From positions 83,749-147,748 of IMG/VR virus record IMGVR_UViG_3300042549_009011: 64,000 bases of DNA. One strand, given 5' to 3'. Origin of the DNA: a virus. Made by a program: the position numbers and the translations under genes. Positions 7,272 to 63,595 of the stretch are shown one piece after another. The notes beneath the pieces were generated by a model. That model was not told where the DNA came from. It searched no databases and saw only the letters and a list, made by a program, of their open reading frames with translations. Each line of letters begins with the position of its first letter. The stretch's first letter is position 1.

Positions 7272-9579
7272 TCTTCCAATTACAAATCATCTTAAAAGCA
7301 ACATCCATAAAGCAAAACAATTAGCTGAAAATTTGGGCAGAAATGGAGTTGATCCAGATTTAATTCTCTATAGTATTTTAACATATCCTTCTTTGGGATC
7401 AGAAGAAATTTTTTCTAACATTTCGTTAGATATAAAATCATTACAAAATGCTTTAACAGAAGATATCTCTAAAAAGAAAAAAACTAAAATCATTTCTGAT
7501 CATTTAACTCATAGAACAAAAGAATTATTTCTAAGAGCAGAAAATATTTGTTTGGAAAATTTTAAAATTGATTATATATGTTCTGAAGCTTTGCTGCTCT
7601 GTTTCTTTACAGAAGACTTCATGCCGAAGTGTTTTAAAAAATTTTTTAATATTTCCAATGAAGTAGAGCTTTATTCACTAGAGGAAGTTCAAAAGCTATT
7701 TGCTTCTACGGCAATTCATATTAAAGATTACAAAGAAGAAAATGAATATGAAATAGATTTAAATTTAGAAGAAGATGAAACTCTTCTATTCTTAGACATG
7801 TTCGAAGATAATGGAATCTTATCCGAATTTGCAGAAAATCTTAACTTAAAAGCGGCTCATGGAGCATTTGAGCAAATCGTTGATTTCGATGGTAAGATAA
7901 ATGAGCTTACAGCTATTCTATGTAGAAAGAAAAAACCGAACGCTATTCTAGTTGGTGGCGGCGGTGTTGGTAAAAGCTCGATTGTGGAAAGCCTAGCTTT
8001 AATGATTGTTAATGGAGAAGCTCCAGAATTGTTAGCTAATAAAGTTATTTATTCTTTAAACTTATCTTCTATGGTTGCTGGAACAATGTATAGAGGGCAA
8101 TTTGAGGAAAGACTTAAAAACTTTGTAGATGAAATAAAAAAATACAACAATATCATTCTGTTTATTGATGAAATTCACACTTTAGTTGGCGCTGGAGGAG
8201 GAGCTTCTTCTTCTCTTGAGGCTTCGAATGCACTCAAGCCAGAACTGGCAAGGGGAACGATATCCTGTATTGGGGCCACAACAATTAATGAATATACAGA
8301 AAGCATTAAAAAAGATGCAGCTTTAGATAGACGCTTTGAGAGAGTCTTGGTTAGAGAACCTTCTAAGTTTATTATGAAGCAGATTTTACCGACCATAGTA
8401 TCTTACTATGAAGAATTTCATGGCGTTGAATACTCAAAAGATTTTACAGATAATGTAGTTGAGTTTTGTGAGAAATTTCTTCCAAATAGATTTTATCCAG
8501 ATAAAGCAGTTACTGTAATTGACCATTGTGGAGCGCAAGCAAAAGTAAACTTTTGGGAAAGAGATGATTCCATCAAAGAATCTCATCAAAATATTCTTTT
8601 TAAAATAAGTGAAAATGGAGAAATACCAGCAGAATTATTTGAAGATCTTAATAAAAAATTAGAAAGCTGGGAAGAAAGGCTATCAAAAGAAACGCCAGTT
8701 GTAGAAATGCAGCATTTAAAGGACTATTTTGAGAAAAAGAAAAATCCATTAGCATCTTTTGAAATCTGTAAAGAAGTCTCTTCTTATATTAAGAAAGAAT
8801 TTGTTGGTCAGAAAAAAGCAATCAAAGATTTCTTTGAGACGATCAACAAGGTTTCTATGGGTCTTGGCAAAAAGAACTCAAGCTCTTCTCCAGACAGTTA
8901 TCTTTTTTATGGAGTGAAATCTTCTGGTAAAACATTATTTTCTAAAACCCTAAAAGATGGATTAGAGAAAAGTGGAGCATCAGTGATTTATTACAATGGA
9001 TCTCAATTATCTGATAATTATGCTCAATACAAAATCATTTCTGAATTAAACAGAAACACCACGCTTTGCGAAAAAGTAGTAATGAATCCAAATTGCGTAA
9101 TCATAGTAGATGACTTTAACAGCATACATCATGATTGCATTAATCTTTTTTCTCAAATTCTAAAAGAGGGAAGATTACAAATGAGTAATGGCGATATTGC
9201 AGATTTTTCAAACTGTAAATTCGTCTTTACTTGTGGAACGAATAATCAGAAGTCTATGGGCTTTAATTTAGAACAAAGCGAGTTAAATGCAGAAATCAAC
9301 AAAGACATACTTGCTTTGATCGAAAAAAGCTTCTTACTGACAACTCCTAATAAAGTAGATCTTAGAAGAATTACATACAATAGACTCAAAGAAATAAAAA
9401 CAAACTTGGGTTATCAAGATGTTGCTTTCAATTTTGATTTTAATTTAATTAAAAATATAGTCGATAAAGTTGACTGCAAAGACTGCTGCATTCAAGAGTT
9501 GAACTCTATTATTGAAAAAGATATAGTAAATAAAATATCTGAAAAATTACTAAAGGGAGAAGCCTTGTCATTCTTCTAA
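7264..9579 (+). CDS. ClpC/ClpA-like Hsp100 AAA+ ATPase
   Basis: Clp N-domain, GGGGVGKS, YRGQFEERL, LFIDEIH, DAALDRRF; second NBD GVKSSGKT; SMGF loop. Confidence 0.9.
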   Translation: MTNLPITNHLKSNIHKAKQLAENLGRNGVDPDLILYSILTYPSLGSEEIFSNISLDIKSLQNALTEDISKKKKTKIISDHLTHRTKELFLRAENICLENFKIDYICSEALLLCFFTEDFMPKCFKKFFNISNEVELYSLEEVQKLFASTAIHIKDYKEENEYEIDLNLEEDETLLFLDMFEDNGILSEFAENLNLKAAHGAFEQIVDFDGKINELTAILCRKKKPNAILVGGGGVGKSSIVESLALMIVNGEAPELLANKVIYSLNLSSMVAGTMYRGQFEERLKNFVDEIKKYNNIILFIDEIHTLVGAGGGASSSLEASNALKPELARGTISCIGATTINEYTESIKKDAALDRRFERVLVREPSKFIMKQILPTIVSYYEEFHGVEYSKDFTDNVVEFCEKFLPNRFYPDKAVTVIDHCGAQAKVNFWERDDSIKESHQNILFKISENGEIPAELFEDLNKKLESWEERLSKETPVVEMQHLKDYFEKKKNPLASFEICKEVSSYIKKEFVGQKKAIKDFFETINKVSMGLGKKNSSSSPDSYLFYGVKSSGKTLFSKTLKDGLEKSGASVIYYNGSQLSDNYAQYKIISELNRNTTLCEKVVMNPNCVIIVDDFNSIHHDCINLFSQILKEGRLQMSNGDIADFSNCKFVFTCGTNNQKSMGFNLEQSELNAEINKDILALIEKSFLLTTPNKVDLRRITYNRLKEIKTNLGYQDVAFNFDFNLIKNIVDKVDCKDCCIQELNSIIEKDIVNKISEKLLKGEALSFF

Positions 9580-17317: not shown

Positions 17318-18852
17318 TGGCTTACTTCAGACCCACACAACCAGTAATTGATTTTCTTATTTCAAATGATGAAATGGAGATCAAAGAGCTTGTCGATGGG
17401 ATTTCTTCAGAAGATTTGACAAGCACAACGGCAAGACCGCTTGCATATAAAACAATATATGGCGATGATCAATATAAAATGCACATATTAAACATAGTTG
17501 GATCTATAGCTCAGTATGCTGTGCCATCTACTGCTAGATCAATAAGCATAGGAAATGGTGTTACGAGTATTGGCGATTACGCATTTCAGAATTTTTCTAG
17601 TCTTGTTGGTTTTTTGGCTATTCCAGATTCAATTACTTCAATTGGCGATCAAGCATTTTTTAATTGTTATAATCTTACTGGCTCTTTGACTATTCCTAGT
17701 TCAATTACTTCAATTGGCAGTTATGCATTTTATGCTTGTTCTGCTCTTACTGGATCTTTAAATTTTCCTTCTTCAATCACTTCGATTGGGGATCGTACAT
17801 TTTTTAATTGCTCCAGCTTAAATGGAACTTTAACAATTACCAATTCGATCACTACGATTGGTGTTGCTGCATTTAGTGGTTGTTCAAGTTTAACTGGTAC
17901 TTTGACGATTCCTTCTTCAGTCACTACGATTGGTAGTAGTGCATTTGCTGCTTGCTCCAACTTAAATGGAACTTTAACGATTCCAAATTCGTTAACTTCG
18001 ATTGCGAATTACACATTTGCTGCTTGCTCCAACTTAAATGGAACTTTAACGATTCCATCTTCGGTAATTTCGATTGGCAATGGCGCATTTCAAGCTTGTT
18101 CTGGTTTTACAGGTTCTTTAACAATCCCATCTTCTGTTACTTCGATTGGTAATAGTGCATTTCAGAATTGTACTGGATTTACTGGAAGTTTGACTATTCC
18201 ATCTTCAGTCACTTCGATTAGTAGTAGTACATTTTCTAATTGCTCCAGCTTAAATGGAACTTTAACCATTCCTTCTTCAGTTACTTCGATTGGTAGTAGT
18301 GCATTTAGTGGTTGTTCAAGTTTAACTGGAACTTTAACCATACCTAGTTCTGTTACTACGATTGGTAGTAGTGCATTTAGTGGTTGTTTTGGCTTTACTG
18401 GAACCTTGACTATACCTAGTTCTATTACTACGATTAATGGAGCCGTATTTAATACTTGCTCTGGATTCACTGGAACTTTAACCATACCTAATTCTGTTAC
18501 TACGATTGGTAGTAGTGCATTTCAGAGTTGCACTGGTTTTACAGGAAGTTTAACCATCCCTTCTTCAGTCACCACAATTAGCAATAGCGCATTTCAGGGC
18601 TGCTCTGGATTTACAGGAACTTTAACGATTCCAAATTCGGTTTCATCCACGGGTACATCTATGTTCAGAAGCTGTTCGGGCATTACAAATGTTAATTGCT
18701 ACATCACAAAAACATTATTGGACAAAACTAACAATCTATTATCGACATCAGTTACAACAATTCACGCTCGTTCATCAGATGCTACATGGACTGCTGGCTC
18801 TGGGCAAACTATCGGAGGAAAAACAGGAATAACAGTCATCAAAGATTTATAA
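17317..18852 (+). CDS. BspA-type LRR protein, about 16 24-aa repeats
   Basis: LTIPSSVTSIGxxAFxxCxxxTG tandem repeats. Confidence 0.9.
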   Translation: MAYFRPTQPVIDFLISNDEMEIKELVDGISSEDLTSTTARPLAYKTIYGDDQYKMHILNIVGSIAQYAVPSTARSISIGNGVTSIGDYAFQNFSSLVGFLAIPDSITSIGDQAFFNCYNLTGSLTIPSSITSIGSYAFYACSALTGSLNFPSSITSIGDRTFFNCSSLNGTLTITNSITTIGVAAFSGCSSLTGTLTIPSSVTTIGSSAFAACSNLNGTLTIPNSLTSIANYTFAACSNLNGTLTIPSSVISIGNGAFQACSGFTGSLTIPSSVTSIGNSAFQNCTGFTGSLTIPSSVTSISSSTFSNCSSLNGTLTIPSSVTSIGSSAFSGCSSLTGTLTIPSSVTTIGSSAFSGCFGFTGTLTIPSSITTINGAVFNTCSGFTGTLTIPNSVTTIGSSAFQSCTGFTGSLTIPSSVTTISNSAFQGCSGFTGTLTIPNSVSSTGTSMFRSCSGITNVNCYITKTLLDKTNNLLSTSVTTIHARSSDATWTAGSGQTIGGKTGITVIKDL

Positions 18853-18868
18853 AAAATATTAAAAAAAA

Positions 18869-19312
18869 ATGAAATACGCAATACTAGGACCTAAAAAAGC
18901 AGTTCTTCGAATTTCTGAAACAGAACCACAATCTCTTAGTGAAAATGTTTCTTTTCAAGAAGTGACAAACAAAATCGCAGAATTAGTTATCGCTGGACAA
19001 AAGCCAGAAACGAGACAACTATATTTTTTAATTGATGGAGTATTAAAAACCCAAAAAGAATATATAGAATCAATTCGCCCCAAAATTCCGCGCAAACAAA
19101 CAAAATTACAGATAATGTTGAGATTGCAAGAAATGAATAAATGGACGACATTTAAAACAATTTTATCAACTCTCCCAGAAATTGTTCAAGACGCTTGGGA
19201 ATTGTCTCAATATATTGATGAATCAGATCCTTTATTTTCTTCTAACAAAACCGCTTTATTAACTGCATTAAATATTACAGAAGAACAATTAAGTTCTCTT
19301 TTTGACAAATAA
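18869..19312 (+). CDS. Hypothetical, possible fibre-assembly chaperone
   Basis: Sits between fibre-like LRR genes; helical C-terminus. Confidence 0.45.
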   Translation: MKYAILGPKKAVLRISETEPQSLSENVSFQEVTNKIAELVIAGQKPETRQLYFLIDGVLKTQKEYIESIRPKIPRKQTKLQIMLRLQEMNKWTTFKTILSTLPEIVQDAWELSQYIDESDPLFSSNKTALLTALNITEEQLSSLFDK

Positions 19313-19323
19313 TTATACACAAT

Positions 19324-21189
19324 ATGCCACAACTAAACACATCAGCCACAGTAACAGAATTCCTCAACTCTTCGACAGAAGCGCAAATGAGGGCAGCGGT
19401 AGATGTTGTTTCAGAAACGGATTTGAGTTTGCCGAAAAATAATATTCATTCTCGATTAACTATAGTTGATATCAATAATGAATTCGCCGCTGTTATTGCA
19501 GGAAATATTCCAGATGGCGTTTTACAGAATAATACAAATGCAAATAAAATTTTTTGGGGAAATAACGTAATAAGTATTGGAGGCAATGCTTTTAATGGTT
19601 GCAATGGATTAACTGGAGATTTAATTATACCCAATACAGTTACTTCGATTGGAACTTACGCATTTAATGGTTGCACTGGATTTAGTGGAGATTTAATCAT
19701 TCCGAATTCGGTGTCTTCAGTTGATAGTGGTACATTTGCTGGCTGCTCTGGGTTTACTGGAAATTTAACTATTGGTAGTGGGATCACCTCAATTAGTTAC
19801 GGCATGTTCTATGGTTGCACTGGTTTTACTGGCTCTTTAACTATTGGAAATTCAGTTACTAATATTGGACAATATGCTTTTGTAGGCTGCTCTGGTCTTA
19901 GTGGAAATTTAGTTATTCCAAATTCTGTTACCACGATTGAAACTAATGCTTTTTATGGTTGCACTGGTTTTGGAGGTTTAACTCTTGGAACTTCGCTTGC
20001 TACGATTGGCGATAGTGCATTTCAAACCTGTTCTGGATTTACTGGTGATTTAATTATTCCAGATTCGGTTAATGTTATTGCTTTCGATGCATTCAGTGGT
20101 TGTACTGGTTTTAATGGAACTTTAACTCTTGGAACTTCACTTACTTCAATTGGTGGTTATGCGTTTTATCAATGTCTTTTTACAGGCTCTTTAACGATTC
20201 CTAATTTGGTTACTGCGATTGACAGTTATGCATTCAATAGCTGTTCTGGATTTACGAGTTTGACCCTTGGAACTTCGGTTACTACGATTGGTGATCGTGC
20301 ATTTGAGGGTTGCTCTGGATTTACAAGTTTGGACCTTGGAACTTCAGTTACTTCAATTGGGACTTACGCATTTAATAACTGTACTAGTTTAACTGGTGAT
20401 TTAATTATTCCAGATTCTGTAACTACGATTAGTGGAGCCGCATTTAGTAATTGCGGTGGTTTTACTGGTGATTTGATTATCGGCAACGGAGTTACTTCGA
20501 TTGCTTTTGACGCATTTAATAATTGTACTGGATTCACTGGAGATTTGGTCATTGGAAATGCCCTTACCGATATTAGCAGTATATTCGATCCTATGGTCAA
20601 CTTTACTGGAACTTTGACAATCGGCACTTCAGTTGGCAGTATTCCATCTTATGCTTTTAATACGGTTTTATTTACTGGTTCTTTGATTATCCCCGATTCT
20701 GTCACTTCAATTGGCGATCACGCATTCAATAGCTGTACTGGTTTCAATGGAACTTTGACTATCGGTACTGGAGTTACTTCGATTGGTAGTCTAGCGTTTT
20801 ATATTTGCGATGGATTTACGGGTTCTTTGACGATTCCAGATTCAGTGACTTCAATAGGCAATAGCGCGTTTTCTGGTTGCGATGGTTTTACTGGAGGTTT
20901 GACTATTAGTAATTCAGTTACTACGATTGGCGATAGCACATTTGCTGGCTGCTCTGGATTCACTGGAATTTTGAATATATCCTCCCCCATTACCTCAATT
21001 GGCGCTTATGCGTTTAATGGTTGTGTTGGCTTTACAGAAATCAACATTTATGCCGCAACCGCTCCAACAATCGGCAGCAATGCATTTTATGGAATGACGG
21101 GCGTATCTCCAGCAGAAATCCACGTTCCAGTTGGTGCAACTGGATATAGCGCAAGCTATGACGGCTTGACTGTTGTTTATGACTTGTAA
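19324..21189 (+). CDS. BspA-type LRR protein, about 21 repeats
   Basis: Tandem LRR_5 repeats; C-cap nearly identical to 15899 ORF. Confidence 0.9.
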   Translation: MPQLNTSATVTEFLNSSTEAQMRAAVDVVSETDLSLPKNNIHSRLTIVDINNEFAAVIAGNIPDGVLQNNTNANKIFWGNNVISIGGNAFNGCNGLTGDLIIPNTVTSIGTYAFNGCTGFSGDLIIPNSVSSVDSGTFAGCSGFTGNLTIGSGITSISYGMFYGCTGFTGSLTIGNSVTNIGQYAFVGCSGLSGNLVIPNSVTTIETNAFYGCTGFGGLTLGTSLATIGDSAFQTCSGFTGDLIIPDSVNVIAFDAFSGCTGFNGTLTLGTSLTSIGGYAFYQCLFTGSLTIPNLVTAIDSYAFNSCSGFTSLTLGTSVTTIGDRAFEGCSGFTSLDLGTSVTSIGTYAFNNCTSLTGDLIIPDSVTTISGAAFSNCGGFTGDLIIGNGVTSIAFDAFNNCTGFTGDLVIGNALTDISSIFDPMVNFTGTLTIGTSVGSIPSYAFNTVLFTGSLIIPDSVTSIGDHAFNSCTGFNGTLTIGTGVTSIGSLAFYICDGFTGSLTIPDSVTSIGNSAFSGCDGFTGGLTISNSVTTIGDSTFAGCSGFTGILNISSPITSIGAYAFNGCVGFTEINIYAATAPTIGSNAFYGMTGVSPAEIHVPVGATGYSASYDGLTVVYDL

Positions 21190-21200
21190 TTTTTAAATAA

Positions 21201-21228
21201 AAAAAACTCCACCGAAAGGTGGAGTTTA
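21201..21228. terminator. Bidirectional terminator
   Basis: AAACTCCACC-GAAA-GGTGGAGTTT between convergent genes. Confidence 0.85.
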
Positions 21229-21244
21229 TTATTTTTAAGTTTAC

Positions 21245-21646
21245 TTAATACTCAACATAAATAGTCGGCGCTTTGACTTCATAAGATTCCTCAAGACCAA
21301 GAGATTTGAGAACCTTCTTCATCATTCCCGCATCAGCGATTGGCGGCAAATGACCTTTGCTCATATGCTTATACAAATCTTGTCTTAAATAAGCCAAATC
21401 TTCTCTCATCCATTTCATTTGATATTCATGCTCAGAATACATGCTCTTCATAGTGGAATACATATCTTCAGGAGAAGATTCGTCTTCATCCTCATCTTCT
21501 TTTTCCTCGTTCATCACTGGAGAATCGTAAGCAATAGAGATTTCTCCATTATTTTCTTCGATGTGAGCTTTAATGCCAAAATTTTCAGCATCTTTAACTG
21601 CTGCTTCAGCTAATTCCATACTTTGCAATGAGAATGATTTTTTCAT
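21245..21646 (-). CDS. Hypothetical acidic protein
   Basis: ORF with GTGTAA motif 12 nt upstream. Confidence 0.6.
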   Translation of the reverse strand: MKKSFSLQSMELAEAAVKDAENFGIKAHIEENNGEISIAYDSPVMNEEKEDEDEDESSPEDMYSTMKSMYSEHEYQMKWMREDLAYLRQDLYKHMSKGHLPPIADAGMMKKVLKSLGLEESYEVKAPTIYVEY

Positions 21647-21674
21647 ATTTTTTATTTATTACACTAATTTTAAA

Positions 21675-22280
21675 TTATTTTTTACTTTTTTCAATATGGT
21701 AATCGAAGGCTTTCATTAATTCCATGTCAATTTTGTTGAAATAAGAAAGCGGCAAAAGTTTTTTTGGCATTAATTCTATCAAATCTGGAATATATATGGT
21801 AGTAGAATTGGGCCATTTTCTTTTTAAAAAGACATACTGATAAAAGCAGAGATACAAATTTGTTCTTTTAATATACTCTTCATTATTAAAAAGATTCCAT
21901 TTTTTAGAATGTTTTAAAGCTCTCTTTTCACAATCTCTTTCTAAGGCTATAATACCAAGCACATTTTCCCAGCAGTTAATTTCAGTTTTATTTTTAGCTA
22001 AACTGTTCCAGAAAAAAGAAGAATCATATTCCCACAGCTTAGATCCTTCAATCTTTTGCTGCATGTGGGAAAATTCATGAACATATATCTCTTCAAAAAG
22101 AGGGTTCTTAAAAGCCATAACTATTTTGTCTTCATAGCAAAGACCGCCGCATCTTACGCCATCAGAACGAAGAAAATTTGTATTTTTAATAATTATTTTT
22201 TTATCATTCTCTTTTAAGTATTCTTTAGACCAATTAAAGAATTCTTTGAAAGAATCGGAGCATGAATTAATTATTTTCAT
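21675..22280 (-). CDS. HExxH zinc metallopeptidase-like protein
   Basis: VHEFSHMQQ...LERD. Confidence 0.6.
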   Translation of the reverse strand: MKIINSCSDSFKEFFNWSKEYLKENDKKIIIKNTNFLRSDGVRCGGLCYEDKIVMAFKNPLFEEIYVHEFSHMQQKIEGSKLWEYDSSFFWNSLAKNKTEINCWENVLGIIALERDCEKRALKHSKKWNLFNNEEYIKRTNLYLCFYQYVFLKRKWPNSTTIYIPDLIELMPKKLLPLSYFNKIDMELMKAFDYHIEKSKK

Positions 22281-22531
22281 TTTTTTATCCTAGATAAAAG
22301 CTTTGAAAAAAGAATATCTTCTTCTAATGCTTCCCTTATTTTTACATCCAAAATGAAAGAATGGGAGCTATGAACAAAATCTGAGGAGTAAACGAATACA
22401 GATCCATCCTCTTCCTTTAAGTAAAAACATGGCTTCCAATTAAAATTTTCATACAAAAAATGCAAAGCAATTTCTTTTTTATTCTTTTCTGAAATTTTGA
22501 CTTCCTTGGTTTCTGTAACTGTTATTGTCAT
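22277..22531 (-). CDS. Hypothetical protein
   Basis: ORF overlapping next start. Confidence 0.55.
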   Translation of the reverse strand: MTITVTETKEVKISEKNKKEIALHFLYENFNWKPCFYLKEEDGSVFVYSSDFVHSSHSFILDVKIREALEEDILFSKLLSRIKK

Positions 22532-22647
22532 ATTTTTTAATTGAAAATTTATTTAAAATTACTATAATGTATTTTTTCAAAAAAGTAAAGACAAATCATC
22601 TCAAAAACTAAAATCTTGTGTAAAATGGATTAAATATTCTCTTCTTC

Positions 22648-22965
22648 ATGACCAAAGAATTATTACTCAAAGCATTATCTTTTTTAACTTCAATTGGTTT
22701 AGCTGTGTCAAGTTATTTTTTAACAGATACTTACAAAAAAATGGATTCTATGAGGTCTGATATCACAGAATTGCAGATCAAAGCCAGCAGATACGAAGGC
22801 AGTTCTCTTTCTTCTTCTGACTTTATCAAAGCAAGAGAAGTTATTGACTCTCAAATTGTTGCTACAGACAAAAGAGTCATTGCTTTGGAAGAGAATAACA
22901 AAATGATAAGAGAATACTTGTCTGAAATAAAACAAGATATAAAAGAAATAAAATCTAAAAATTAA
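22648..22965 (+). CDS. N-terminal TM + coiled-coil protein (holin/lysis-like)
   Basis: Single TM helix then heptads. Confidence 0.45.
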   Translation: MTKELLLKALSFLTSIGLAVSSYFLTDTYKKMDSMRSDITELQIKASRYEGSSLSSSDFIKAREVIDSQIVATDKRVIALEENNKMIREYLSEIKQDIKEIKSKN

Positions 22966-23026
22966 TAAAACTTGACCTTAAAGGCAATTTGTTTATAATT
23001 GGGTTAATTGTGTGTATATAAGCAAG

Positions 23027-23947
23027 ATGAAACTAAATTTTACAGAAAATTCTCTATCTGCCAAAAGATCTGGTCCAAAAAGTGGCGCACAAACTCCAGC
23101 AGCGCCAAGTGAAAGAAGAAAAGGTTCTGATAAAAACAAAAAAGGAAGCTCAAGCAAAGATGGCGGCAAAATTACATTTTCCGAACAAGTGACTAATGCT
23201 TTAAAAAACAAAGTAGCAGAGCATAATAAAAAATACTCTAAGAAAGTTTCTTTGTCTCAATTAAAAAAAGTATATAGAAGAGGTGCTGGAGCATTTAGTT
23301 CTTCTCATAGAGCCAACATGACTAGGGGGCAATGGGCAATGGCTAGAGTAAATACATTTCTCAAAATGATGAGAGGTGGCAAAGTCAAAGATTCATACAG
23401 AGCGGCAGATCAAGATTTAGCCAAAGGTTCTGTTGATGAAAACAATACAGTAGATTTTTTTGAATTTGATGAATTGGAGCTTGCTTTAGCAAAAGTTGAT
23501 ATAGTTAAATATGGAATCTCAAACAACGAAGCAGATTTCGATATAGAAGACTTAGAATACTCTGAGGCAGAAAAGAAAACTCTTAACAAGCCATTTAGAT
23601 TACCAACAGGCTCAAATAAAAAATTTGGTGTTTATGTGAAAAACCCAAAGACAGGCAATACCTTTATGGTTAAATTTGGCGATCCAAATATGGAAATAAA
23701 AAGAGACGATCCAAATCGCCGTAAGAATTTTAGAGCGCGTCATAATTGCGACACTGCAAAAGATAAAACCACTCCACGTTATTGGAGTTGTAAATTTTGG
23801 AGTTCTAAGCCTGTTTCTTCTTTAGCTTCTACAGAAGAAGTCGAAGGTTATTGGGATGATTCCTCGTTTGAAGAACAAGAAACAATTTTAGCCCAAAATA
23901 AAGAGCTTGATTTTATAAGTATTTTTGTGGAGCAAGAAGATATTTAA
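23027..23947 (+). CDS. Basic two-domain phage protein
   Basis: VYRRGAGA..WAMARVN domain + KFGDPNM..RRKNFRARHNC domain; start 9 nt after GTGTAT. Confidence 0.6.
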   Translation: MKLNFTENSLSAKRSGPKSGAQTPAAPSERRKGSDKNKKGSSSKDGGKITFSEQVTNALKNKVAEHNKKYSKKVSLSQLKKVYRRGAGAFSSSHRANMTRGQWAMARVNTFLKMMRGGKVKDSYRAADQDLAKGSVDENNTVDFFEFDELELALAKVDIVKYGISNNEADFDIEDLEYSEAEKKTLNKPFRLPTGSNKKFGVYVKNPKTGNTFMVKFGDPNMEIKRDDPNRRKNFRARHNCDTAKDKTTPRYWSCKFWSSKPVSSLASTEEVEGYWDDSSFEEQETILAQNKELDFISIFVEQEDI

Positions 23948-23952
23948 AACTA

Positions 23953-24141
23953 TTAATAAATAGTCTCAGAATCTTTTCCTTCGTCAGTAATAACTGAAGC
24001 TTTGCTTTTTTTATCGTCCCATTTACCATAACAGACTGCTGCTCTTTGTTTTTGATCAGGAAACTCTGTTGAAAGGTCAGACATGCAAGAAGAGATAAAA
24101 TCATTCTTAGATTGTTTTTTCTTAGGACTTGGAATAGGCAT
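23953..24141 (-). CDS. Small phage protein
   Basis: MPIP..FISSCM..QRAAVCY pattern; GTGTAA 8 nt upstream. Confidence 0.6.
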   Translation of the reverse strand: MPIPSPKKKQSKNDFISSCMSDLSTEFPDQKQRAAVCYGKWDDKKSKASVITDEGKDSETIY

Positions 24142-24178
24142 GTATATTATTACACTTTAAATATTTTTTTGGAAAAAG

Positions 24179-24252
24179 TGCCTAGAGGGAGACTTGAACT
24201 CCCAAAACCCAGTTTCTAAGACTGGTATGTATGCCAATTCCATCATCTAGGC
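24179..24252 (-). tRNA. trnL: tRNA-Leu(TAG), short variable loop
   Basis: CCAGT-CTTAGAA-ACTGG; cloverleaf. Confidence 0.85.
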
Positions 24253-24258
24253 TAAAAA

Positions 24259-24334
24259 TGGAGGGCGGTGAGGGAATTTAACCCCCTTAAAGATGGGTTG
24301 CAATCATCTGCCTAAACAGTCGAGCCAACCGCCC
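24259..24334 (-). tRNA. trnC: tRNA-Cys(GCA)
   Basis: Loop TTGCAAC, U73, CCA. Confidence 0.8.
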
Positions 24335-24342
24335 TTTGAAAA

Positions 24343-24417
24343 TGGTAGTCCTAGAGAATTTTGAAATCTCAACCTATCAGTTATCAACCGATTGCTCTTC
24401 CTTTGAGCTATAGGACT
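24343..24417 (-). tRNA. trnI: tRNA-Ile(GAT)
   Basis: Loop TTGATAA, CCA. Confidence 0.85.
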
Positions 24418-24424
24418 ATTAAAG

Positions 24425-24500
24425 TGGAGCCTCCTGTCCGATTCGAACGAACGACATGCTCATTACAAATGAGCTGCTCTACCAACTGAGCTAAGGAGGC
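24425..24500 (-). tRNA. trnT: tRNA-Thr(TGT)
   Basis: GCTCA-TTTGTAA-TGAGC, CCA. Confidence 0.92.
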
Positions 24501-24507
24501 ATAAAAT

Positions 24508-24594
24508 TGGCGAGTGGCAGAGGGATTGAACCCCACACCTTGCGGTGCATTTTCTTTAGCAGAGAAACCTAATCACCAGATTAGATTACCACTC
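24508..24594 (-). tRNA. trnS: tRNA-Ser(GCT)
   Basis: Loop CTGCTAA, long variable arm, G73. Confidence 0.85.
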
Positions 24595-24603
24595 ATGAAA
24601 AAT

Positions 24604-24678
24604 TGGTGGGTTATAAAGGAATCAAACCTCTGTTTTGTCGTTCGTAGCGACATGTCCTATTCATTAGACGAATAACCC
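24604..24678 (-). tRNA. trnR: tRNA-Arg(ACG)
   Basis: TGTCG-CTACGAA-CGACA, CCA. Confidence 0.88.
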
Positions 24679-24685
24679 TATAAAA

Positions 24686-24760
24686 TGGTCGCTTGTCACG
24701 GAATCGAACCGTATTATCTGAGGCTTCTCAGCGCAATGTTTCCAGACCTGCCCACAAGCG
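24686..24760 (-). tRNA. tRNA-like RNA with 4-nt anticodon loop (no anticodon)
   Basis: Acceptor CGCTTGT/ACAAGCG, D arm, CTGAG-AAGC-CTCAG, GTTCGATTC, ACCA. Confidence 0.75.
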
Positions 24761-24770
24761 TAAAATTAAT

Positions 24771-24823
24771 TTCCAAGGGTTAGAATGTTTAACTCATGCC
24801 ACCACAGCATGATGCCCTTGGAA
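24771..24823 (-). ncRNA. Small hairpin RNA within tRNA array
   Basis: TTCCAAGGGC/ACCCTTGGAA closing stem with inner CATGC-TGTGGTG-GCATG. Confidence 0.45.
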
Positions 24824-24827
24824 AAAT

Positions 24828-24951
24828 TGGAGCGGCGGCAGAGCGTCACTTCTGTCTTGCAGGGGACTCCGAAATACCCCATGATCTCCTTCTTACTAGG
24901 ACAGTCCAAGATTTACTGTCTTTTAATTCGGGTTTTTGTTGACTATACCGC
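24828..24951 (-). ncRNA. About 124-nt CCA-ending multi-hairpin RNA
   Basis: GCGGT/GCCGC-T-CCA ends; GACAGT/ACTGTC and GGGG/CCCC hairpins. Confidence 0.5.
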
Positions 24952-24961
24952 ATTATAAAAG

Positions 24962-25034
24962 TCCTCCATGTTGGTTTCGATCCAACTACCCGACCCTTAT
25001 AAAGAATCTGCTCTCCCGATTGAGCTAATGGAGG
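24962..25034 (-). tRNA. trnI: tRNA-Ile(TAT)
   Basis: GATTC-TTTATAA-GGGTC; no encoded CCA. Confidence 0.78.
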
Positions 25035-25039
25035 TAAAA

Positions 25040-25113
25040 TGGAGGGACGCAACGGTTATGATCCGTTCCCGCGACATTCACAGAGTCGGATGCTACCACT
25101 ACACTATCGTCCC
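25040..25113 (-). tRNA. trnH: tRNA-His(GTG)
   Basis: Loop CTGTGAA; atypical T loop and U73. Confidence 0.75.
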
Positions 25114-25119
25114 TTAAAT

Positions 25120-25193
25120 TGGTGCATTGTGCGAGAATTGAACTCGCGCCTGATATTTGGAAGAAACCCGTGCTACCGTAACACTTACAATGC
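25120..25193 (-). tRNA. trnG: tRNA-Gly(TCC)
   Basis: Loop CTTCCAA, CCA. Confidence 0.82.
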
Positions 25194-25200
25194 ATAAAAA

Positions 25201-25275
25201 TGGCTCACCGTTTAGGATTCGAACCTAACTGGATCTCCTTAACAGGGAGGTGTCGCGCCTAGCGACCTACGGTGA
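25201..25275 (-). tRNA. trnN: tRNA-Asn(GTT)
   Basis: Loop CTGTTAA, G73, CCA. Confidence 0.9.
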
Positions 25276-25284
25276 TTTGGAAAT

Positions 25285-25359
25285 TGGTAGGGGCGTAGGG
25301 TAATGCTCCCTATTCGTCGAGTTAAAAGCCCGATGCATCACTATTAATGCTTCACCCCC
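25285..25359 (-). tRNA. trnK: tRNA-Lys(TTT)
   Basis: Loop CTTTTAA; T loop AGCATTA. Confidence 0.82.
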
Positions 25360-25368
25360 ATTTAAAAT

Positions 25369-25446
25369 TGGCGCACAGGGTCAAAATCGAATTGACCTCA
25401 CAAAGATTTGGAGTCCTCGTCGCCTAGCCTTGGAACATGCCCGTGC
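25369..25446 (-). tRNA. trnW: tRNA-Trp(CCA)
   Basis: Loop CTCCAAA, G73, CCA. Confidence 0.8.
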
Positions 25447-25455
25447 GTTAAAAAT

Positions 25456-25548
25456 TGGCGGGTGCGGTAGGATTTGAACCCACGGAACGCTCATCACGCC
25501 CAACAGTTTTCAAGACTGCCGCCATAAACCAGACTCGACCACACACCC
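25456..25548 (-). tRNA. trnS: tRNA-Ser(TGA)
   Basis: Loop CTTGAAA, long variable arm. Confidence 0.9.
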
Positions 25549-25556
25549 GTAAAAAA

Positions 25557-25646
25557 TGGTGCGCCCCACTAGAATCGAACTAGATGCCCATTAGGGAGCG
25601 GATTTACAGTCCACCGTAAGCCCAGCTTACCTTATTTATGAGACGC
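25557..25646 (-). tRNA. trnY: tRNA-Tyr(GTA), expanded acceptor-D linker
   Basis: Loop CTGTAAA, variable arm, CCA. Confidence 0.78.
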
Positions 25647-25651
25647 GAAAT

Positions 25652-25725
25652 TGGTGGCTCCTCCGTGAGTTGCACACGAACCTACAGATTCAAAGTCTGT
25701 CGCGCTTCGATTACGCTAAGGAGCT
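25652..25725 (-). tRNA. trnQ: tRNA-Gln(TTG)
   Basis: ACAGA-CTTTGAA-TCTGT, CCA. Confidence 0.82.
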
Positions 25726-25734
25726 ATTATAAAT

Positions 25735-25810
25735 TGGTAGGACAGGTGGGATTTGCACCCACACCTTGAGAGCGTATGAGACTCTTGCACACTTATATGC
25801 TTGCTGTCCA
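25735..25810 (-). tRNA. tRNA with CAT anticodon (Met or Ile2)
   Basis: AGAGT-CTCATAC-GCTCT; U1:U72 mismatch. Confidence 0.75.
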
Positions 25811-25820
25811 GTTGAAAAAA

Positions 25821-25892
25821 TTGCGGAGGCAGGAGTCGAACCTGCTTACGATGCTTATGAGACACCTTTCTGAACCCTTCGAATTCCCCGCG
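25821..25892 (-). tRNA. tRNA-fMet-like (CAT)
   Basis: CGCGGGG/CTCCGCA with C1:A72 mismatch; loop CTCATAA. Confidence 0.75.
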
Positions 25893-25902
25893 ATTATAAA
25901 AT

Positions 25903-25985
25903 TGATCCCCAACCAAAAGTAGTCTTTGTCGCCCTACGTATGAGCTTACAGATCGGGGCATGAAGCCCCTTGTCCTTTTGGTGGG
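25903..25985 (-). ncRNA. About 80-nt structured RNA within tRNA array
   Basis: CCCACCAAAAG/CTTTTGGTTGGG closing stem, GGGGC-TTCAT-GCCCC hairpin, ends ATCA. Confidence 0.45.
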
Positions 25986-25990
25986 AAAAT

Positions 25991-26088
25991 TGGTCTAGGT
26001 AGAGGGATTCGAACCCCCGAAGGACGGACACTTACCGCCCTCAACTGATTCCAAGTCAGCCACATTACCAAGCTATGTCAATACCTAG
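25991..26088 (-). tRNA. trnP: tRNA-Pro(TGG) with long variable arm
   Basis: Loop CTTGGAA; C1:G72, A73; 8-bp variable stem. Confidence 0.82.
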
Positions 26089-26094
26089 TGAAAT

Positions 26095-26169
26095 TGGTCA
26101 TGCATACGGGGAACGATCCCGTAGTCTCTTGAGTGAAAGTCAAGCGTGTTACCATTACACTAATGCATG
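26095..26169 (-). tRNA. trnE: tRNA-Glu(TTC)
   Basis: CTTGA-CTTTCAC-TCAAG, CCA. Confidence 0.85.
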
Positions 26170-26181
26170 TTAAAAAATTTA

Positions 26182-26358
26182 CCAGTTGCCTCGATTTCCA
26201 AGGCTAACACGGGACTGGAAGCTCCGCACAAAAAATACTTTAAAATCATTCTAGTCAGACTTTTAACTGCTATCTCGTTATCAACGAACGTTAAGGATTT
26301 TTCAGCCTTCCCTTTGGCTTTCATGGCTAGATCAAGTTTTCGTCTAGCGATTTAAAGT
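26182..26358 (-). ncRNA. Structured RNA leading the tRNA array
   Basis: ACTTTAAATCGCTAG pairs with CTAGAATGATTTTAAAGT; internal hairpins; separate CCAGT/ACTGG hairpin. Confidence 0.4.
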
Positions 26359-26359
26359 G

Positions 26360-26387
26360 AACTTATCTTAATTTGTAATTTTGTCAA
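26360..26387 (-). promoter_or_regulatory. Sigma70-type promoter for tRNA array
   Basis: TTGACA-16-TAAGTT, same spacing as many other promoters in the window. Confidence 0.6.
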
Positions 26388-26388
26388 T

Positions 26389-26442
26389 AAAAAAACCCAA
26401 CTTTTTTAAGGTTGGGCTAAAAAAACTAAAAATTTAACCCAA
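26389..26442 (-). terminator. Terminator with overlapping antiterminator (putative attenuator)
   Basis: GCCCAAC/GTTGGG+U7 terminator; alternative 10-bp TTGGGTTAAA/TTTAGCCCAA. Confidence 0.7.
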
Positions 26443-26447
26443 AAACT

Positions 26448-26513
26448 TTACACGACCCACCCGCAGCGATTAATCACTGGCTGGCTTTTGAGATATGTAA
26501 ACGAATAATGCAT
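26448..26513 (-). CDS. Putative 21-aa leader peptide MHYSFTYLKSQPVINRCGWVV
   Basis: ATG 5 nt after upstream stop; TAA just before antiterminator arm; 17 different amino acids. Confidence 0.65.
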   Translation of the reverse strand: MHYSFTYLKSQPVINRCGWVV

Positions 26514-26518
26514 TAAAA

Positions 26519-26689
26519 TTATTTGGTTGGTTTTTCTTCCACAACAACTGGCTTTCTGGCTTCGTCGTATGTGTTGACTGCTTTAGCAAAAGCATTAAAC
26601 TTTTGAAGGTTTTCTGCAAATTTAGCTTGATCGGCACAAGAGTTCAAAAGAACTAAAGAGGCGATTAATGTAAAAATTTTTGCTTTCAT
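26519..26689 (-). CDS. Small lipoprotein
   Basis: MKAKIFTLIASLVLLNS-C lipobox; GTGTAA 8 nt upstream. Confidence 0.65.
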   Translation of the reverse strand: MKAKIFTLIASLVLLNSCADQAKFAENLQKFNAFAKAVNTYDEARKPVVVEEKPTK

Positions 26690-26716
26690 ATTTTTTATTA
26701 CACTCAATATTAATAT

Positions 26717-27292
26717 TTAATATAAATTTTTCAAGTAATAATTCCATTCAGGTCTAATTTTTTCTGCATTCAACATCAAAGCAGGTATTTGAGGAGGCTT
26801 TGGTATTTCTCCATTCTTATCAAAGAACGGAATAAAACTTCCTTTAGCTCTATTGCAATTTAAACAAGAAATAACTCTATTATCATGAACATCTTCTCCA
26901 CCTTTACTTCGTGGTTGAACATGATCTATGCTTAATTGCTTTAATGGAAACTTTTCAAAACAATATTGGCAAGTATAATTACATATTTTAGCCAATTCAA
27001 AAAGAGTCAACTTTCTTTTCTTTGGTCTTCTAAAGAATTTGCTTGTAACAACAATAACAGTTGGTATAGCCCAAACATTGTGAGAGCTAGGCAGAAACGG
27101 CTGATCTTCATGATACTCTGCACTTGAATTCCAAGAATCTAAAGAATGAAAAATAGATGCATTTTTATCCAATGCAGAAATTCTTTTCTTATGCAAATGA
27201 GAAAATGCCGCTCTTGCAGTTACAACCGTAATTGGTTGCCAAGCATTATTCAAAAGTAAAGTTGTTTTGCTATTTGCTGTTATAAGATTCAT
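26717..27292 (-). CDS. HNH endonuclease
   Basis: CQYC..IDHVQPRSKGG..N..SCLNCN..KG. Confidence 0.88.
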   Translation of the reverse strand: MNLITANSKTTLLLNNAWQPITVVTARAAFSHLHKKRISALDKNASIFHSLDSWNSSAEYHEDQPFLPSSHNVWAIPTVIVVTSKFFRRPKKRKLTLFELAKICNYTCQYCFEKFPLKQLSIDHVQPRSKGGEDVHDNRVISCLNCNRAKGSFIPFFDKNGEIPKPPQIPALMLNAEKIRPEWNYYLKNLY

Positions 27293-27294
27293 TG

Positions 27295-27984
27295 TTATCT
27301 ACTATCTATAAAATATTCTTTTGCACCGTCAATTATCATCGCAGTAATATATCCATAAGGTAAGAAGCTGCCAGTGTCAATGCAAATCCTGAATCCATCA
27401 TTAGTGACTCCATCTCTTTGGACGGTGTGACCACAAACAACGGTTTTACCTGATTTGTGAGGATATATATCATTGTATCGTCCCCAAATGCATTGCCATT
27501 CTTCTTGATCTTCCACATCTTGTTCGTGAGCCAAATGACCGTGAACAAAAATATGATTGTCTGTTTCATAGGTGAGTTTTAAATCATTAAAAAAGTCTCC
27601 ATGAATTTCAAACATTTGTTGAATGGTTTCACCAAAGTTATCTTCTTTTAGACCATATTTGTTGTAAGAGCGTAAACAAGAGACTCCTCCGTTGTTCATC
27701 CAAGAATGGAACATCTGAGATAGACCCAATCTTCCCTCTGTGAATTTCAGACCGTCCATTGCAAACATTTCGTGATTGCCTTTCAAAGTCACCAAATTAC
27801 ATTTATCTTTAAGAGATAAAATAAAATCAATTACGCCTTTAGAATCTTCACCACGATCAATATAATCGCCAAGAAAAATAATCGTGTCGTTTTTAGTGAA
27901 TGATAGTTTTTCAAAAAGGTTTTTGAGTTTATGGATTTCTCCATGAACGTCACCAATCGCTATAATTTTACCGCTATTTTTCAT
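27295..27984 (-). CDS. Metallophosphoesterase (Ser/Thr phosphatase family)
   Basis: GDVHG, GDYIDRG, GNHE, GHT, IDTG. Confidence 0.92.
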   Translation of the reverse strand: MKNSGKIIAIGDVHGEIHKLKNLFEKLSFTKNDTIIFLGDYIDRGEDSKGVIDFILSLKDKCNLVTLKGNHEMFAMDGLKFTEGRLGLSQMFHSWMNNGGVSCLRSYNKYGLKEDNFGETIQQMFEIHGDFFNDLKLTYETDNHIFVHGHLAHEQDVEDQEEWQCIWGRYNDIYPHKSGKTVVCGHTVQRDGVTNDGFRICIDTGSFLPYGYITAMIIDGAKEYFIDSR

Positions 27985-28222
27985 ATAGTTCTTTTATATC
28001 AGCTTCCAACTCCGTTGATCTATATCCAAGATTCAACAACATAATCTCTAATCCTTCTAATCCAGCATTCCTGCAATAGAGTTGGCTTCTTCCGCCGCGA
28101 ACTGTTACTGAACAAGTGCTAGGCGTATGTTCAATAATCATGTGCGGATCTGCTATACCAACCTGTTGCCCACCTTTTGAGCGAGTTATTGGAGTTATTT
28201 TAATTTGTGATGGGTGAATCAT
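27974..28222 (-). CDS. Minimal GGQ release-factor / peptidyl-tRNA hydrolase domain
   Basis: RSKGGQQV...HTPS...RSQ..RN matches RF domain 3. Confidence 0.7.
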   Translation of the reverse strand: MIHPSQIKITPITRSKGGQQVGIADPHMIIEHTPSTCSVTVRGGRSQLYCRNAGLEGLEIMLLNLGYRSTELEADIKELYEK

Positions 28223-28251
28223 TTTTTTTTAATTATTAAATATGTAAATTT

Positions 28252-28791
28252 TTACCTTAAATTTTCTTTAAATAATCTCCAACGATCACTATCAATAGAC
28301 TTAACACCAGAATTTATATTTGTCAACATGTTTTTTATTTCTTCGAAATTATTATAAATGAATTTAGGAGGCATCATACCCATAATCCAAAGTGGGGTAA
28401 ATTGTTTTCCTCCTTCAACAACAACAAAGGTCGGACGCTTGATTTTTATCGCAGTCGATAGTTCCTCCATCGTGCCAAAGGTTGGAGTTTTTGGGTTGAT
28501 ATAGCAGATAATAAAGTCTGCGCGATCAACCATAGACAAATCGAATGCCCTTACTTGTTTAAAATGATCATGAACTTCATCAAATTCTCCATTAGCCATC
28601 AATGCTGCCATTCTAGCATGAGTGTTTTCATCTTCTTCTGGAGCGTTGATAAATGGTTTTTCGTATGGGTTGAAGACGGTGACGTTAATTTCTTGCAAAA
28701 ATTCTGTCATATCATCTCTCCAACTTCTGCCATCAGTTTCATACTGCATCGCTCCTGCTAGGTAAGTTTTAGTTTTCTTTAGTATATTCAT
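28252..28791 (-). CDS. Nucleoside 2-deoxyribosyltransferase-like protein
   Basis: YLAG..FNP..DL..V..AD..GTMEE. Confidence 0.78.
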   Translation of the reverse strand: MNILKKTKTYLAGAMQYETDGRSWRDDMTEFLQEINVTVFNPYEKPFINAPEEDENTHARMAALMANGEFDEVHDHFKQVRAFDLSMVDRADFIICYINPKTPTFGTMEELSTAIKIKRPTFVVVEGGKQFTPLWIMGMMPPKFIYNNFEEIKNMLTNINSGVKSIDSDRWRLFKENLR

Positions 28792-28848
28792 AACTTTATG
28801 AGATTTGTATTCGTGATTCAGCGTGTTGTATTTTTACTGATCATCTTT

Positions 28849-29052
28849 TTATCTTTCTTTTAAATCATTCGCGCGGCGCAATTCTTCAACCATTTCTCTT
28901 TGGTATTTTGCCTTAGTTGGTTCTGGCATGAATAATTCCTCTGCTGTATAATTTCCGTTGCCACCCCTAATCCAGATGAAAACATAAAAGAATAGAGAAA
29001 TTGCAATAACTATTGCGATTAAAGCTTCAATAATTGTTAGTCCTTTTTTCAT
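28849..29052 (-). CDS. Prepilin-like small protein
   Basis: MKKG|LTIIEALIAIVI class III signal. Confidence 0.65.
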   Translation of the reverse strand: MKKGLTIIEALIAIVIAISLFFYVFIWIRGGNGNYTAEELFMPEPTKAKYQREMVEELRRANDLKER

Positions 29053-58119: not shown

Positions 58120-58160
58120 ACAACCCCGCTTTCGCGGGGGTTGTCAAGTCTTTTTTTCGA

Positions 58161-58982
58161 TTATTCGCGGAGGTCATTTTCACCCTCTGGGGCGTTGTCC
58201 TCGCAACCTTTGGTTACAATCTCTTGGAGTTCAATTTGCGGCACGTGATGAGCGAGCTTGTCGAAGATGCTCTGCATGGTCATGGTGCGGAATGGGAGCT
58301 TGGAAAGATCACCACCTTTGAGATTTTCGGTCACAGCGTTGTAGAGATTCCACAGCGTGTTGCCCACGAACTCAACGTGGCGAGGATTTTCTGAACCTTC
58401 CATGTGGCGGCGAAACTCCACCACGTTCGTGTAAAGGTCACGTGCTGGAATTGCTTTCGAATCGACCAATTTGACAAGCAGATTTTCAGCTTGAGCGGAA
58501 GAAACAAAAGTTTCCTTGTAGCGTTCGATACGCAAGCCCATGTCGTTCCAATGAGCGACAACGCGAGCCACAGCGTCAGCGATCACGCGAGGGAGATCAG
58601 AGAGGATGTTGAGCGTGTGGCGGCGTGACAGCTTCACGTCAGACGAGAAGCAAAGATTTTCGCAAACCATCATGCGGTTGCCGATGCAGATTGCGGCGGC
58701 GAAAGCCTTGTCATGAGAGTTGCGAAGCCCCAAGACGACTTGGCGATCCGTTCCGTCGATACCTTTACCAGTGAGAGCGAAGCCGCCGAAGTAGCGAAGA
58801 CCGCCACGTGCAAGCGAGTGTTCTTCCTCAACGATTTCCAAACCGACAGCTTCGATAGCTTCGCGGGTCAACTTGACGAGCGTGTGGTGAGGGATTGGCA
58901 TATGGGAATCGGTTGCCTCTGGAGTTTCAACACCCATGAGAGCTTCGAATTGAACTTTGTTTTTTGCGATGATAAGTGACAT
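58161..58982 (-). CDS. DUF932-like protein
   Basis: PIPH, RNSHD, G..VCEN, TLWNLYNAVTE. Confidence 0.75.
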   Translation of the reverse strand: MSLIIAKNKVQFEALMGVETPEATDSHMPIPHHTLVKLTREAIEAVGLEIVEEEHSLARGGLRYFGGFALTGKGIDGTDRQVVLGLRNSHDKAFAAAICIGNRMMVCENLCFSSDVKLSRRHTLNILSDLPRVIADAVARVVAHWNDMGLRIERYKETFVSSAQAENLLVKLVDSKAIPARDLYTNVVEFRRHMEGSENPRHVEFVGNTLWNLYNAVTENLKGGDLSKLPFRTMTMQSIFDKLAHHVPQIELQEIVTKGCEDNAPEGENDLRE

Positions 58983-63588: not shown

Positions 63589-63595
63589 TTGTCCA

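Follow-up and report, generated by a model that had tools for sequence, protein, structure and literature searches.

A putative leader-peptide attenuator gauging the tRNA pool ahead of a phage tRNA array

Organization of the locus

The window analysed here is a stretch of 64,000 nucleotides (nt) forming the final 64 kb of a 147.7-kb uncultured virus record (IMGVR_UViG_3300042549_009011), and DNA near-identical to it is present in many lake-water runs. On its minus strand lies a large array of transfer RNA (tRNA) genes, and upstream of this array stands the element of concern here, a candidate ribosome-mediated (leader-peptide) attenuator made up of a short open reading frame (ORF) of unusually diverse amino acid content and three arms, the second of which can pair with either the first or the third (Table 1). 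An earlier reading of the letters alone (the sequence-only reading) had described the ORF, a 10-bp antiterminator, a terminator, a promoter and the array, and its coordinates and bases for all of these proved correct.

Table 1. Positions of features in the window and of leader ORFs in related loci. Diversity is the number of amino acid kinds over the number of residues, followed by its tail probability among 16,190 ATG ORFs of related loci.
Feature	Position	Strand	Remarks
HNH endonuclease gene	27292-26717	minus	heads the local gene order
GTGTAA gene-start motif, probable phage promoter	26698-26703	minus	8 nt ahead of the ATG of the lipoprotein-like gene
Lipoprotein-like gene, 56 amino acids, signal peptide ending in a Cys lipobox	26519-26689	minus	ORF call
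Leader ORF, 21 codons plus TAA, 17 amino acid kinds	26448-26513	minus	ATG 5 nt past the lipoprotein stop
Arm 1, 5' arm of the antiterminator, UUGGGUUAAA	26433-26442	minus	+6 to +15 after the stop codon
Arm 2, shared arm, including UUUAGCCCAA (26421-26412)	26411-26421	minus	pairs with arm 1 or arm 3
Arm 3 of the terminator and U7 tract	26389-26401	minus	sequence and folding
Sigma-70-like array promoter, TTGACA-16-TAAGTT	26360-26387	minus	sequence
Leader of about 190 nt, promoter to first tRNA gene	26170-26359	minus	no Rfam match
tRNA array, about 20 genes, tRNA-Glu first	24178-26169	minus	ARAGORN, Rfam, reading by eye
GTGTAA sites in the window	11360, 11626, 15533, 15540, 21664, 24155, 26703, 37486, 52697, 54558	both	
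Leader ORF homologue by position, L113	11159-11224		21 codons; diversity 15/21, 0.039
Leader ORF homologue by position, L121	11157-11222		21 codons; diversity 16/21, 0.008
Leader ORF homologue by position, L123	871-939		22 codons; diversity 17/22, 0.002
Leader ORF homologue by position, L084	13861-13932		23 codons; diversity 14/23, 0.26
ORF ahead of the array, L153			diversity 16/23, 0.022

Thirteen tRNAs of the array were called by ARAGORN and more by Rfam, with a further Trp gene added by eye; the anticodons read for the genes added from Rfam are those of two Met tRNAs, Lys, Cys and Ser-GCU. The array covers 16 amino acids, with no tRNA for Ala, Asp, Phe or Val, and the tRNA kinds listed in the sequence-only reading were all recovered by one of these three routes. 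Most genes of the array encode the CCA end, followed by (A)TTT, which looks like a common processing or spacer signal. Unusual anticodons occur in a tRNA with TAT (Ile) at 24961-25034 (minus strand) and in a tRNA-like gene with AAA (Phe) at 63205-63279 (minus strand).

Alternative pairing behind the leader ORF

Arms 1 and 2 pair over 10 bp across a loop of 11 nt. The terminator is formed by AGCCCAAC (26418-26411) and GUUGGGUU (26401-26394), an 8-bp stem that closes a 9-nt loop and is followed by a U7 tract ending at 26389. The two hairpins are mutually exclusive and about equally stable (-10.0 kcal/mol for the antiterminator, -9.5 kcal/mol for the terminator), and folding of the whole leader places the antiterminator in the minimum-energy structure and the terminator in the centroid. 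A further pairing with arm 2, proposed in the sequence-only reading for GGGUGGGU in the last codons of the ORF, is not needed.

How exceptional the upstream pairing of arm 2 appears depends on how it is framed. Dinucleotide shuffles give probabilities of 0.03-0.1 and genomic windows drawn at random 0.003-0.017, and the value for the antiterminator pairing spans 0.006-0.1 according to the definition of the arm and the upstream stretch; by rank, it stands third of 35 among the terminators of the genome. No segment that would sequester arm 1 without translation was found in the window, and untranslated transcripts should therefore also read through.

The terminator hairpin (window 26391-26423) has a near-identical copy, shorter by one base, in two lake runs; the contigs that carry it are more abundant, its flanks are unrelated, and no arm 1 is present in the 30 adjacent bases shown. 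The terminator may thus be a mobile module.

Leader ORFs and arms in related loci

Relatives were reached through a nucleoside deoxyribosyltransferase-like gene (28791-28252), which as a single query recovered L084 and L085 at 75-77% identity and as an alignment recovered 49 further loci, with large arrays in L113, L121, L123, L120 and L153. L113, L121, L123 and L084 each carry an ATG ORF of 21-23 codons, then a terminator, and then an array that starts at tRNA-Glu, so that the ORF, whose conservation the sequence-only reading had made decisive, is retained in four relatives. The short, highly diverse ORF that it had expected ahead of arrays in related phages was found in L113, L121 and L123, the ORF of L084 being less diverse. 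A profile of the window and L084 placed L113 just upstream of tRNA-Glu at E 0.0015 and L121 at E 0.21, and the global alignment of the window with L084 gave z 5.2.

The order of elements in L113 and L121 begins with the same HNH gene and continues with GTGTAA, 9 nt, a 21-codon ATG ORF, hairpins and a U tract, the promoter TTGACA-17-TATAGT, a leader and tRNA-Glu. The GTGTAA-N9-ATG before these two leader ORFs is the signal of bona fide genes. In L123 a GTATAA motif, a 22-codon ORF and a terminator are followed by TTGATA-16-TATATT, its -35 box straight behind the U tract as in the window; the terminator loop CTTAAAAAA (window 26410-26402) is identical between these two, on stems that are entirely different. 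The lipoprotein gene is absent from L113 and L121. L084 has lost it save for a remnant of the last nine codons, whose final four residues match the homologue P0002, and keeps the start context, the 23-codon ORF and the terminator before tRNA-Glu.

The peptides themselves are poorly conserved. Across the five leader ORFs only a weak pattern can be seen, namely Met, His/Arg and Tyr at the start, and near the end Asn, Arg/Cys/Thr and, one or two residues on, Trp. Between L113 and L121, 11 of the 21 leader codons differ, all of them non-synonymously, while frame and length are kept in a neighbourhood that is 71-80% identical. This pattern appears to fit an ORF that must be read, in a regulatory role, better than one that encodes a working peptide.

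One pairing rule was applied to all loci, the 5' arm of the terminator with two flanking bases being set against the stretch from 9 nt before the ORF end to 3 nt before the arm. On two sequences RNAalifold gave no useful result, and as MAFFT left the arms out of register, duplex energies were used. In the window, L113, L121 and L123 the best partner of the terminator 5' arm starts within positions +1 to +5 behind the stop codon (P against shuffles 0.006, 0.0185, 0.027 and 0.0105, respectively); the distance from the stop to that 5' arm itself is 29-34 nt in each of the five loci. Under the common rule the antiterminator and terminator energies lie close to each other, at -10.6 and -9.5 kcal/mol in the window, -8.7 and -7.4 in L113, -10.7 and -12.2 in L121, and -14.5 and -13.2 in L123. 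Fisher's combination over all five loci, L084 included, gives 7e-5, a value that overstates the case because the loci share ancestry.

Arm 1 of L123 (GCUCGCU) pairs with its own arm 2 (GGCGGGC) at -13.5 kcal/mol and with the arms of the other loci at -1.8 to -5.1 kcal/mol; the arms of the window, L113 and L121 have a common GGG/CCC core and flanks that differ. Of the covarying alternative hairpins for which the sequence-only reading had called, the pairing in the window, L113, L121 and L123 and the arm swap of L123 were found, and L084 did not provide them. An alternative hairpin with a 5' arm that a ribosome could cover is present in the window, L121 and L123, ambiguous in L113 and absent from L084.

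Other routes to relatives gave little. BLAST of the region against GenBank phages, in near and distant modes, returned no match; in IMG/VR the exact leader pattern was not found and a strict composite pattern matched only the contig of L084 itself. The lipoprotein, searched against IMG/VR as a single sequence and as an alignment, had no match there, and its match among genome contigs, a cyclophilin lipoprotein from a Bacteroidota metagenome-assembled genome, shares only a similar signal peptide and is irrelevant. A phosphatase query recovered one IMG/VR and 11 metagenome loci, all without tRNAs and with the similarity to the window ending at the phosphatase gene, and none of 80 DUF5824 loci had tRNAs nearby. 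In L153 a diverse 23-codon ORF precedes the array and the downstream fold is different, so that this locus is not counted as support for a switch.

Composition of the leader and of its array

The leader peptide of the window contains no Ala, Asp or Glu, and its codons form no tandem runs. Its 17 kinds in 21 residues are the highest value among the 994 ATG ORFs of at least 21 codons in the genome, and the chance of such diversity, which the sequence-only reading had proposed to compute, is low: 0.003-0.005 under its own or the local base composition, and 0.0006 as a tail probability against the ORFs of related loci. The leader is identical in contigs from four public DNA runs, which offer no natural variants. 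Taken alone the window is suggestive only, its properties having been picked after the fact, and the case rests on the relatives. Combined by Fisher's method, the diversity tails reach the order of 1e-6, a figure likewise inflated by the shared ancestry of the loci.

L084 presents a different kind of evidence. Its whole 37-kb record holds nine tRNAs, and the block behind the leader consists of Glu, Thr, Pro, Tyr, Gln and Asn, followed after one gene by Lys. In the leader, codons 4-16 specify exclusively these seven amino acids, Lys once and each of the others twice, and this 13-residue stretch is the sole such case among 20,435 stop-free windows of the locus; against 14,563 ORFs the match of leader to array has a P of 5.5e-4 when scored by run length and of 0.024 when scored by count. 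A ribosome stalled on these codons, which precede the helix arm, would not cover that arm. For large arrays such a comparison of sets is powerless; that of L123, for instance, covers 18 amino acids after a relaxed tRNA search.

With respect to translation, there is no Shine-Dalgarno enrichment in the genome, gene starts lie in A-rich, G-poor sequence, and the A/T-rich, G-free context of the leader start is typical of them. Because the leader ORF begins 5 nt past the lipoprotein stop, its translation by re-initiation is plausible. An imperfect 16-nt palindrome, CAGTGATTAATCGCTG, lies inside the ORF at 26464-26479 (minus strand) and forms a 6-bp hairpin in the predicted fold; it could be a pause hairpin or a protein-binding site.

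Transcription signals

About 15 ORFs of at least 40 codons, among them ORFs of 544, 677 and 2018 codons, begin at an ATG separated by 8-13 nt from a GTGTAA upstream. The largest ORFs are included, and the sites often stand directly behind a terminator; GTGTAA also precedes genes in L004 and L020 and stands directly before the leader ORF in L113 and L121. It is probably a single-element phage promoter that gives near-leaderless messenger RNAs, and transcripts running into the leader ORF are likely to start from the copy ahead of the lipoprotein gene. A second GTGTAA, made of the last codon and stop of the leader (26453-26448), was considered as a promoter, L084 having one at an equal distance from its terminator. 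The idea was dropped because the ORFs of L113, L121 and L123 end otherwise (TGA or other codons) and because this copy has neither the A/T-rich upstream context nor a downstream ATG.

The sigma-70-like promoter between the terminator and the array matches the consensus at three of six positions in its -10 box and is absent from the promoter-scanner list. That a promoter lies past the terminator had been entered as a caveat in the sequence-only reading, and the caveat holds, the arrangement being conserved in relatives. It follows that only transcription arriving from upstream would be gated.

Neighbouring genes and other observations

The product of the lipoprotein-like gene has no Pfam match; its homologues P0002 and P0003 are 82-84% identical to it. 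About 1.5 kb upstream of the array an 82-amino acid protein (27974-28222, minus strand) has a GGQ motif and a weak RF-1 match below the Pfam threshold, and looks like a mini release factor or a ribosome-rescue protein of the ArfB type. A 5.7-kb direct repeat, which includes the tRNA-like gene with anticodon AAA, links window positions 58158-63904 to record positions 17577-23281 (124,371 bp apart, 89-99.6% identical); it could represent a terminal repeat, or else two strains joined during assembly.

L113 (11316-11435), L121 (11312-11428) and L084 (14020-14066) have in common a conserved stretch of about 45 nt that lies between the promoter and tRNA-Glu. It is 98% identical between L113 and L121, the flanks being 70-80% identical, and is not clearly present in the window. 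Its hairpin carries a compensated stem change in L084 (TAGG/CCTA vs TAGA/TCTA) and has no Rfam match. A tRNA with the anticodon CTA (an amber suppressor, labelled 'Pyl' by ARAGORN) occurs at 13749-13823 in L084 and at 1725-1798 in L085. The array of L123 holds several oddities, for which the coordinates 7458-7846, 3059-3330 and 1335-2060 are listed: a transfer-messenger RNA (tmRNA) gene, a tRNA-Asn whose anticodon loop is interrupted by a group I intron, and an apparent 5' tRNA half followed by an endonuclease-like ORF that reaches tRNA-Glu.

Interpretation

What has to be accounted for, then, is an ORF of constrained length, three arms with their conservation and covariation, and the diversity of the leader. 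There is reason to think that these make up a ribosome-mediated attenuator that gauges the tRNA pool ahead of the phage tRNA array, a reading to which we assign a probability of roughly 60%. The same attenuator had been put forward in the sequence-only reading, and the comparative tests support it, since the ORF, the arm behind its stop and the diversity all recur in relatives.

We infer the translation of the ORF, the stalling, the read-through, the effect on tRNA levels and the timing as follows. Transcripts from upstream, probably from the GTGTAA of the lipoprotein gene, would carry the 21-codon ORF, whose stop lies 5 nt before arm 1, and arms 1 and 3 would compete for arm 2. On smooth translation to the stop the ribosome would cover arm 1, leaving arms 2 and 3 to form the hairpin that, with the U tract, ends transcription. 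A ribosome delayed earlier in the ORF would allow arm 1 to capture arm 2 before arm 3 is made, and transcription would read through into the tRNA genes. Because the ORF contains one codon for nearly every amino acid, the ribosome could be slowed when almost any tRNA runs short, whether from starvation, heavy late protein synthesis or host defences that cut tRNA; a negative feedback loop would result, with the device as its general gauge of the tRNA pool. The sigma-70-like promoter might provide a basal, probably early, supply of tRNA, to which the attenuator would add late, demand-dependent read-through; this division is suggested because GTGTAA marks the largest ORFs.

A bolder extension, which we hold tentatively and at somewhat less than even odds, is that the leader ORF serves as a roster for the tRNA pool and evolves together with the array behind it, a large array being matched by almost every amino acid once and an array of seven tRNAs by those seven twice. 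A stall at any listed codon, for example after a cut by a host anticodon nuclease, would open late-promoter transcription into the replacement tRNA genes, and the whole would form a self-regulating circuit of counter-defence and supply, widespread in large aquatic phages.

Several observations weigh against the attenuator, and some of them fall on its structure. In L084 a strong terminator (-16 kcal/mol) is accompanied by no arm 1 after the stop (P 0.40), and the upstream helix of that locus, with its 5' arm within codons 18-20, overlaps the terminator base by 2-3 nt only. Arm 1 of L113 has a better partner that does not overlap the terminator. The covariation amounts to one complete arm swap (L123) and small adjustments, and appears real but not rich; the combined probabilities, as said, overstate the case. 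Local similarity between the window and L084 is not significant (nhmmer, E 98). Other observations concern the content of the leader. The sequence-only reading had matched codons to array tRNAs, and in the window this match is no better than chance (hypergeometric P of about 0.09 for the overlap of the amino acid sets of peptide and array): the leader has three Val codons in a phage without tRNA-Val and lacks Glu, though tRNA-Glu opens the array. One codon per amino acid is also a less sensitive gauge than the runs of classical leaders. Finally, a promoter stands between the terminator and the array in four of the five loci (the window, L113, L121 and L123), so that the array is not transcribed only through the attenuator, as membership in the class would demand, and the terminator could merely insulate two transcription units. 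Related arrays of L085, G004, G005 and L120 have no such module, and because several arrays lack it the module is an optional device of one lineage.

The last two points also speak for a rival explanation, that of an ordinary gene end followed by a promoter. The terminator would end an upstream late gene (the lipoprotein gene or, in relatives, a gene for a small 21-amino acid protein), the TTGACA promoter alone would drive the array, the ORF would encode an unrelated small protein or be fortuitous, and the upstream pairing would be incidental. Such a view would also accommodate the near-identical terminator of other lake contigs with no arm 1 beside it, the weak motif shared by the peptides near their ends, and the other tRNA genes of the window, which are simple promoter-tRNA units with plain promoters and no leader ORF. 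It is nevertheless unlikely, for it leaves unexplained that an arm directly after the stop matches the terminator 5' arm in four loci of differing sequence, that the length and position of the ORF are kept while the peptide varies freely, that diversity recurs, that the leader of L084 matches its array, and that L084 retained both ORF and terminator after the lipoprotein gene was lost.

A second explanation accepts a real, translation-coupled attenuator and lets it sense general translation capacity (the availability of ribosomes, shut-off of the host, toxins or antibiotics that target ribosomes, or RNA polymerase-ribosome coupling), with diversity as a by-product. The three-arm geometry needs only a ribosome that reaches or misses the stop in time; single codons are weak sensors of single amino acids, the codon match in the window is at chance level, and the neighbours include genes of translation upkeep, namely that of the GGQ release-factor-domain protein and the tmRNA gene beside the L123 array. 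The conservation of diversity far beyond chance speaks against a by-product, and general capacity does not predict a leader written in the seven amino acids of its array, as in L084; we consider this explanation about as improbable as the preceding one. It is very improbable that the array is a mere neighbour of a short terminated transcript or 21-amino acid peptide acting in trans, as do the Sinorhizobium attenuator RNA rnTrpL and peptide peTrpL (attenuator-derived small RNAs and active leader peptides being known; PMC6614838, PMC7968998), since in spite of the unit having its own start motif and terminator in L113 and L121, neither peptide nor RNA sequence is conserved outside the arms and the unit always lies directly upstream of a tRNA array.

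Comparison with known systems

In attenuators of the trp type roughly 10-12 nt past the stop are shielded by a ribosome that stands there; here this stretch would correspond to arm 1. Like the trpL, hisL, leuL and pheL leaders and the multivalent thrL and ilvL leaders of Proteobacteria, the present element has a short leader ORF and an intrinsic terminator, one arm of which is also used by an antiterminator, and its stop is likewise placed so that a terminating ribosome would mask the antiterminator and an upstream stall would give read-through. The ORF, terminator, antiterminator and covariation that mark the class are thus present, and diversity takes the place of codon runs: nearly every amino acid appears once (in L084, six appear twice each), whereas the amino-acid operon leaders have runs of one or two. 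The element further differs from them in being borne by a phage, in having tRNA genes rather than enzymes downstream and a promoter between terminator and target, and in that no 1:2 'pause' segment was seen.

Two other classes invite comparison. In the pyrBI and pyrE attenuators of enterobacteria it is the ribosome keeping pace with RNA polymerase that counts, not the content of the peptide, and pausing that depends on uridine triphosphate is the signal; a close ribosome there prevents the terminator, whereas a ribosome at the stop would here favour it. T-box riboswitches resemble the present element in gauging the tRNA pool and in switching a terminator/antiterminator pair, but their ligand is a single uncharged tRNA, bound directly and independently of translation, and what they control are synthetase or amino-acid genes. 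A cmscan of 22000-29000 at E up to 1 gave no T-box or leader-family match (His_leader, Trp_leader, Leu_leader, Thr_leader) on the leader region, returning only tRNA matches and weak, chance-level matches on tRNA genes, and the leader of L113 had no Rfam match of note.

The tRNA arrays of phages are usually treated as a matter of codon usage or of escape from host defences that cut tRNA. Full-text literature searches returned no publication in which tRNA genes, of phages or of bacteria, are controlled by a leader peptide or an attenuator. Closest among published systems is the long trn operon of Anabaena PCC 7120, an extra, horizontally spread tRNA array that is induced when translation is impaired (PMC8421152). 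There the repressor protein TrcR acts at the promoter (PMC10272220); leader peptides, attenuation and terminators are mentioned in neither paper. If the attenuator proposed here is real, the oldest known RNA switch design would have been re-used to gauge the whole tRNA pool, and ribosome speed would be tied to the transcription of tRNA genes by a link that is direct and testable. It would offer a compact natural sensor of translation stress for use in reporters, and the combination of a short, highly diverse ORF with three arms would serve as a signature by which regulated tRNA arrays could be recognized in metagenomes.

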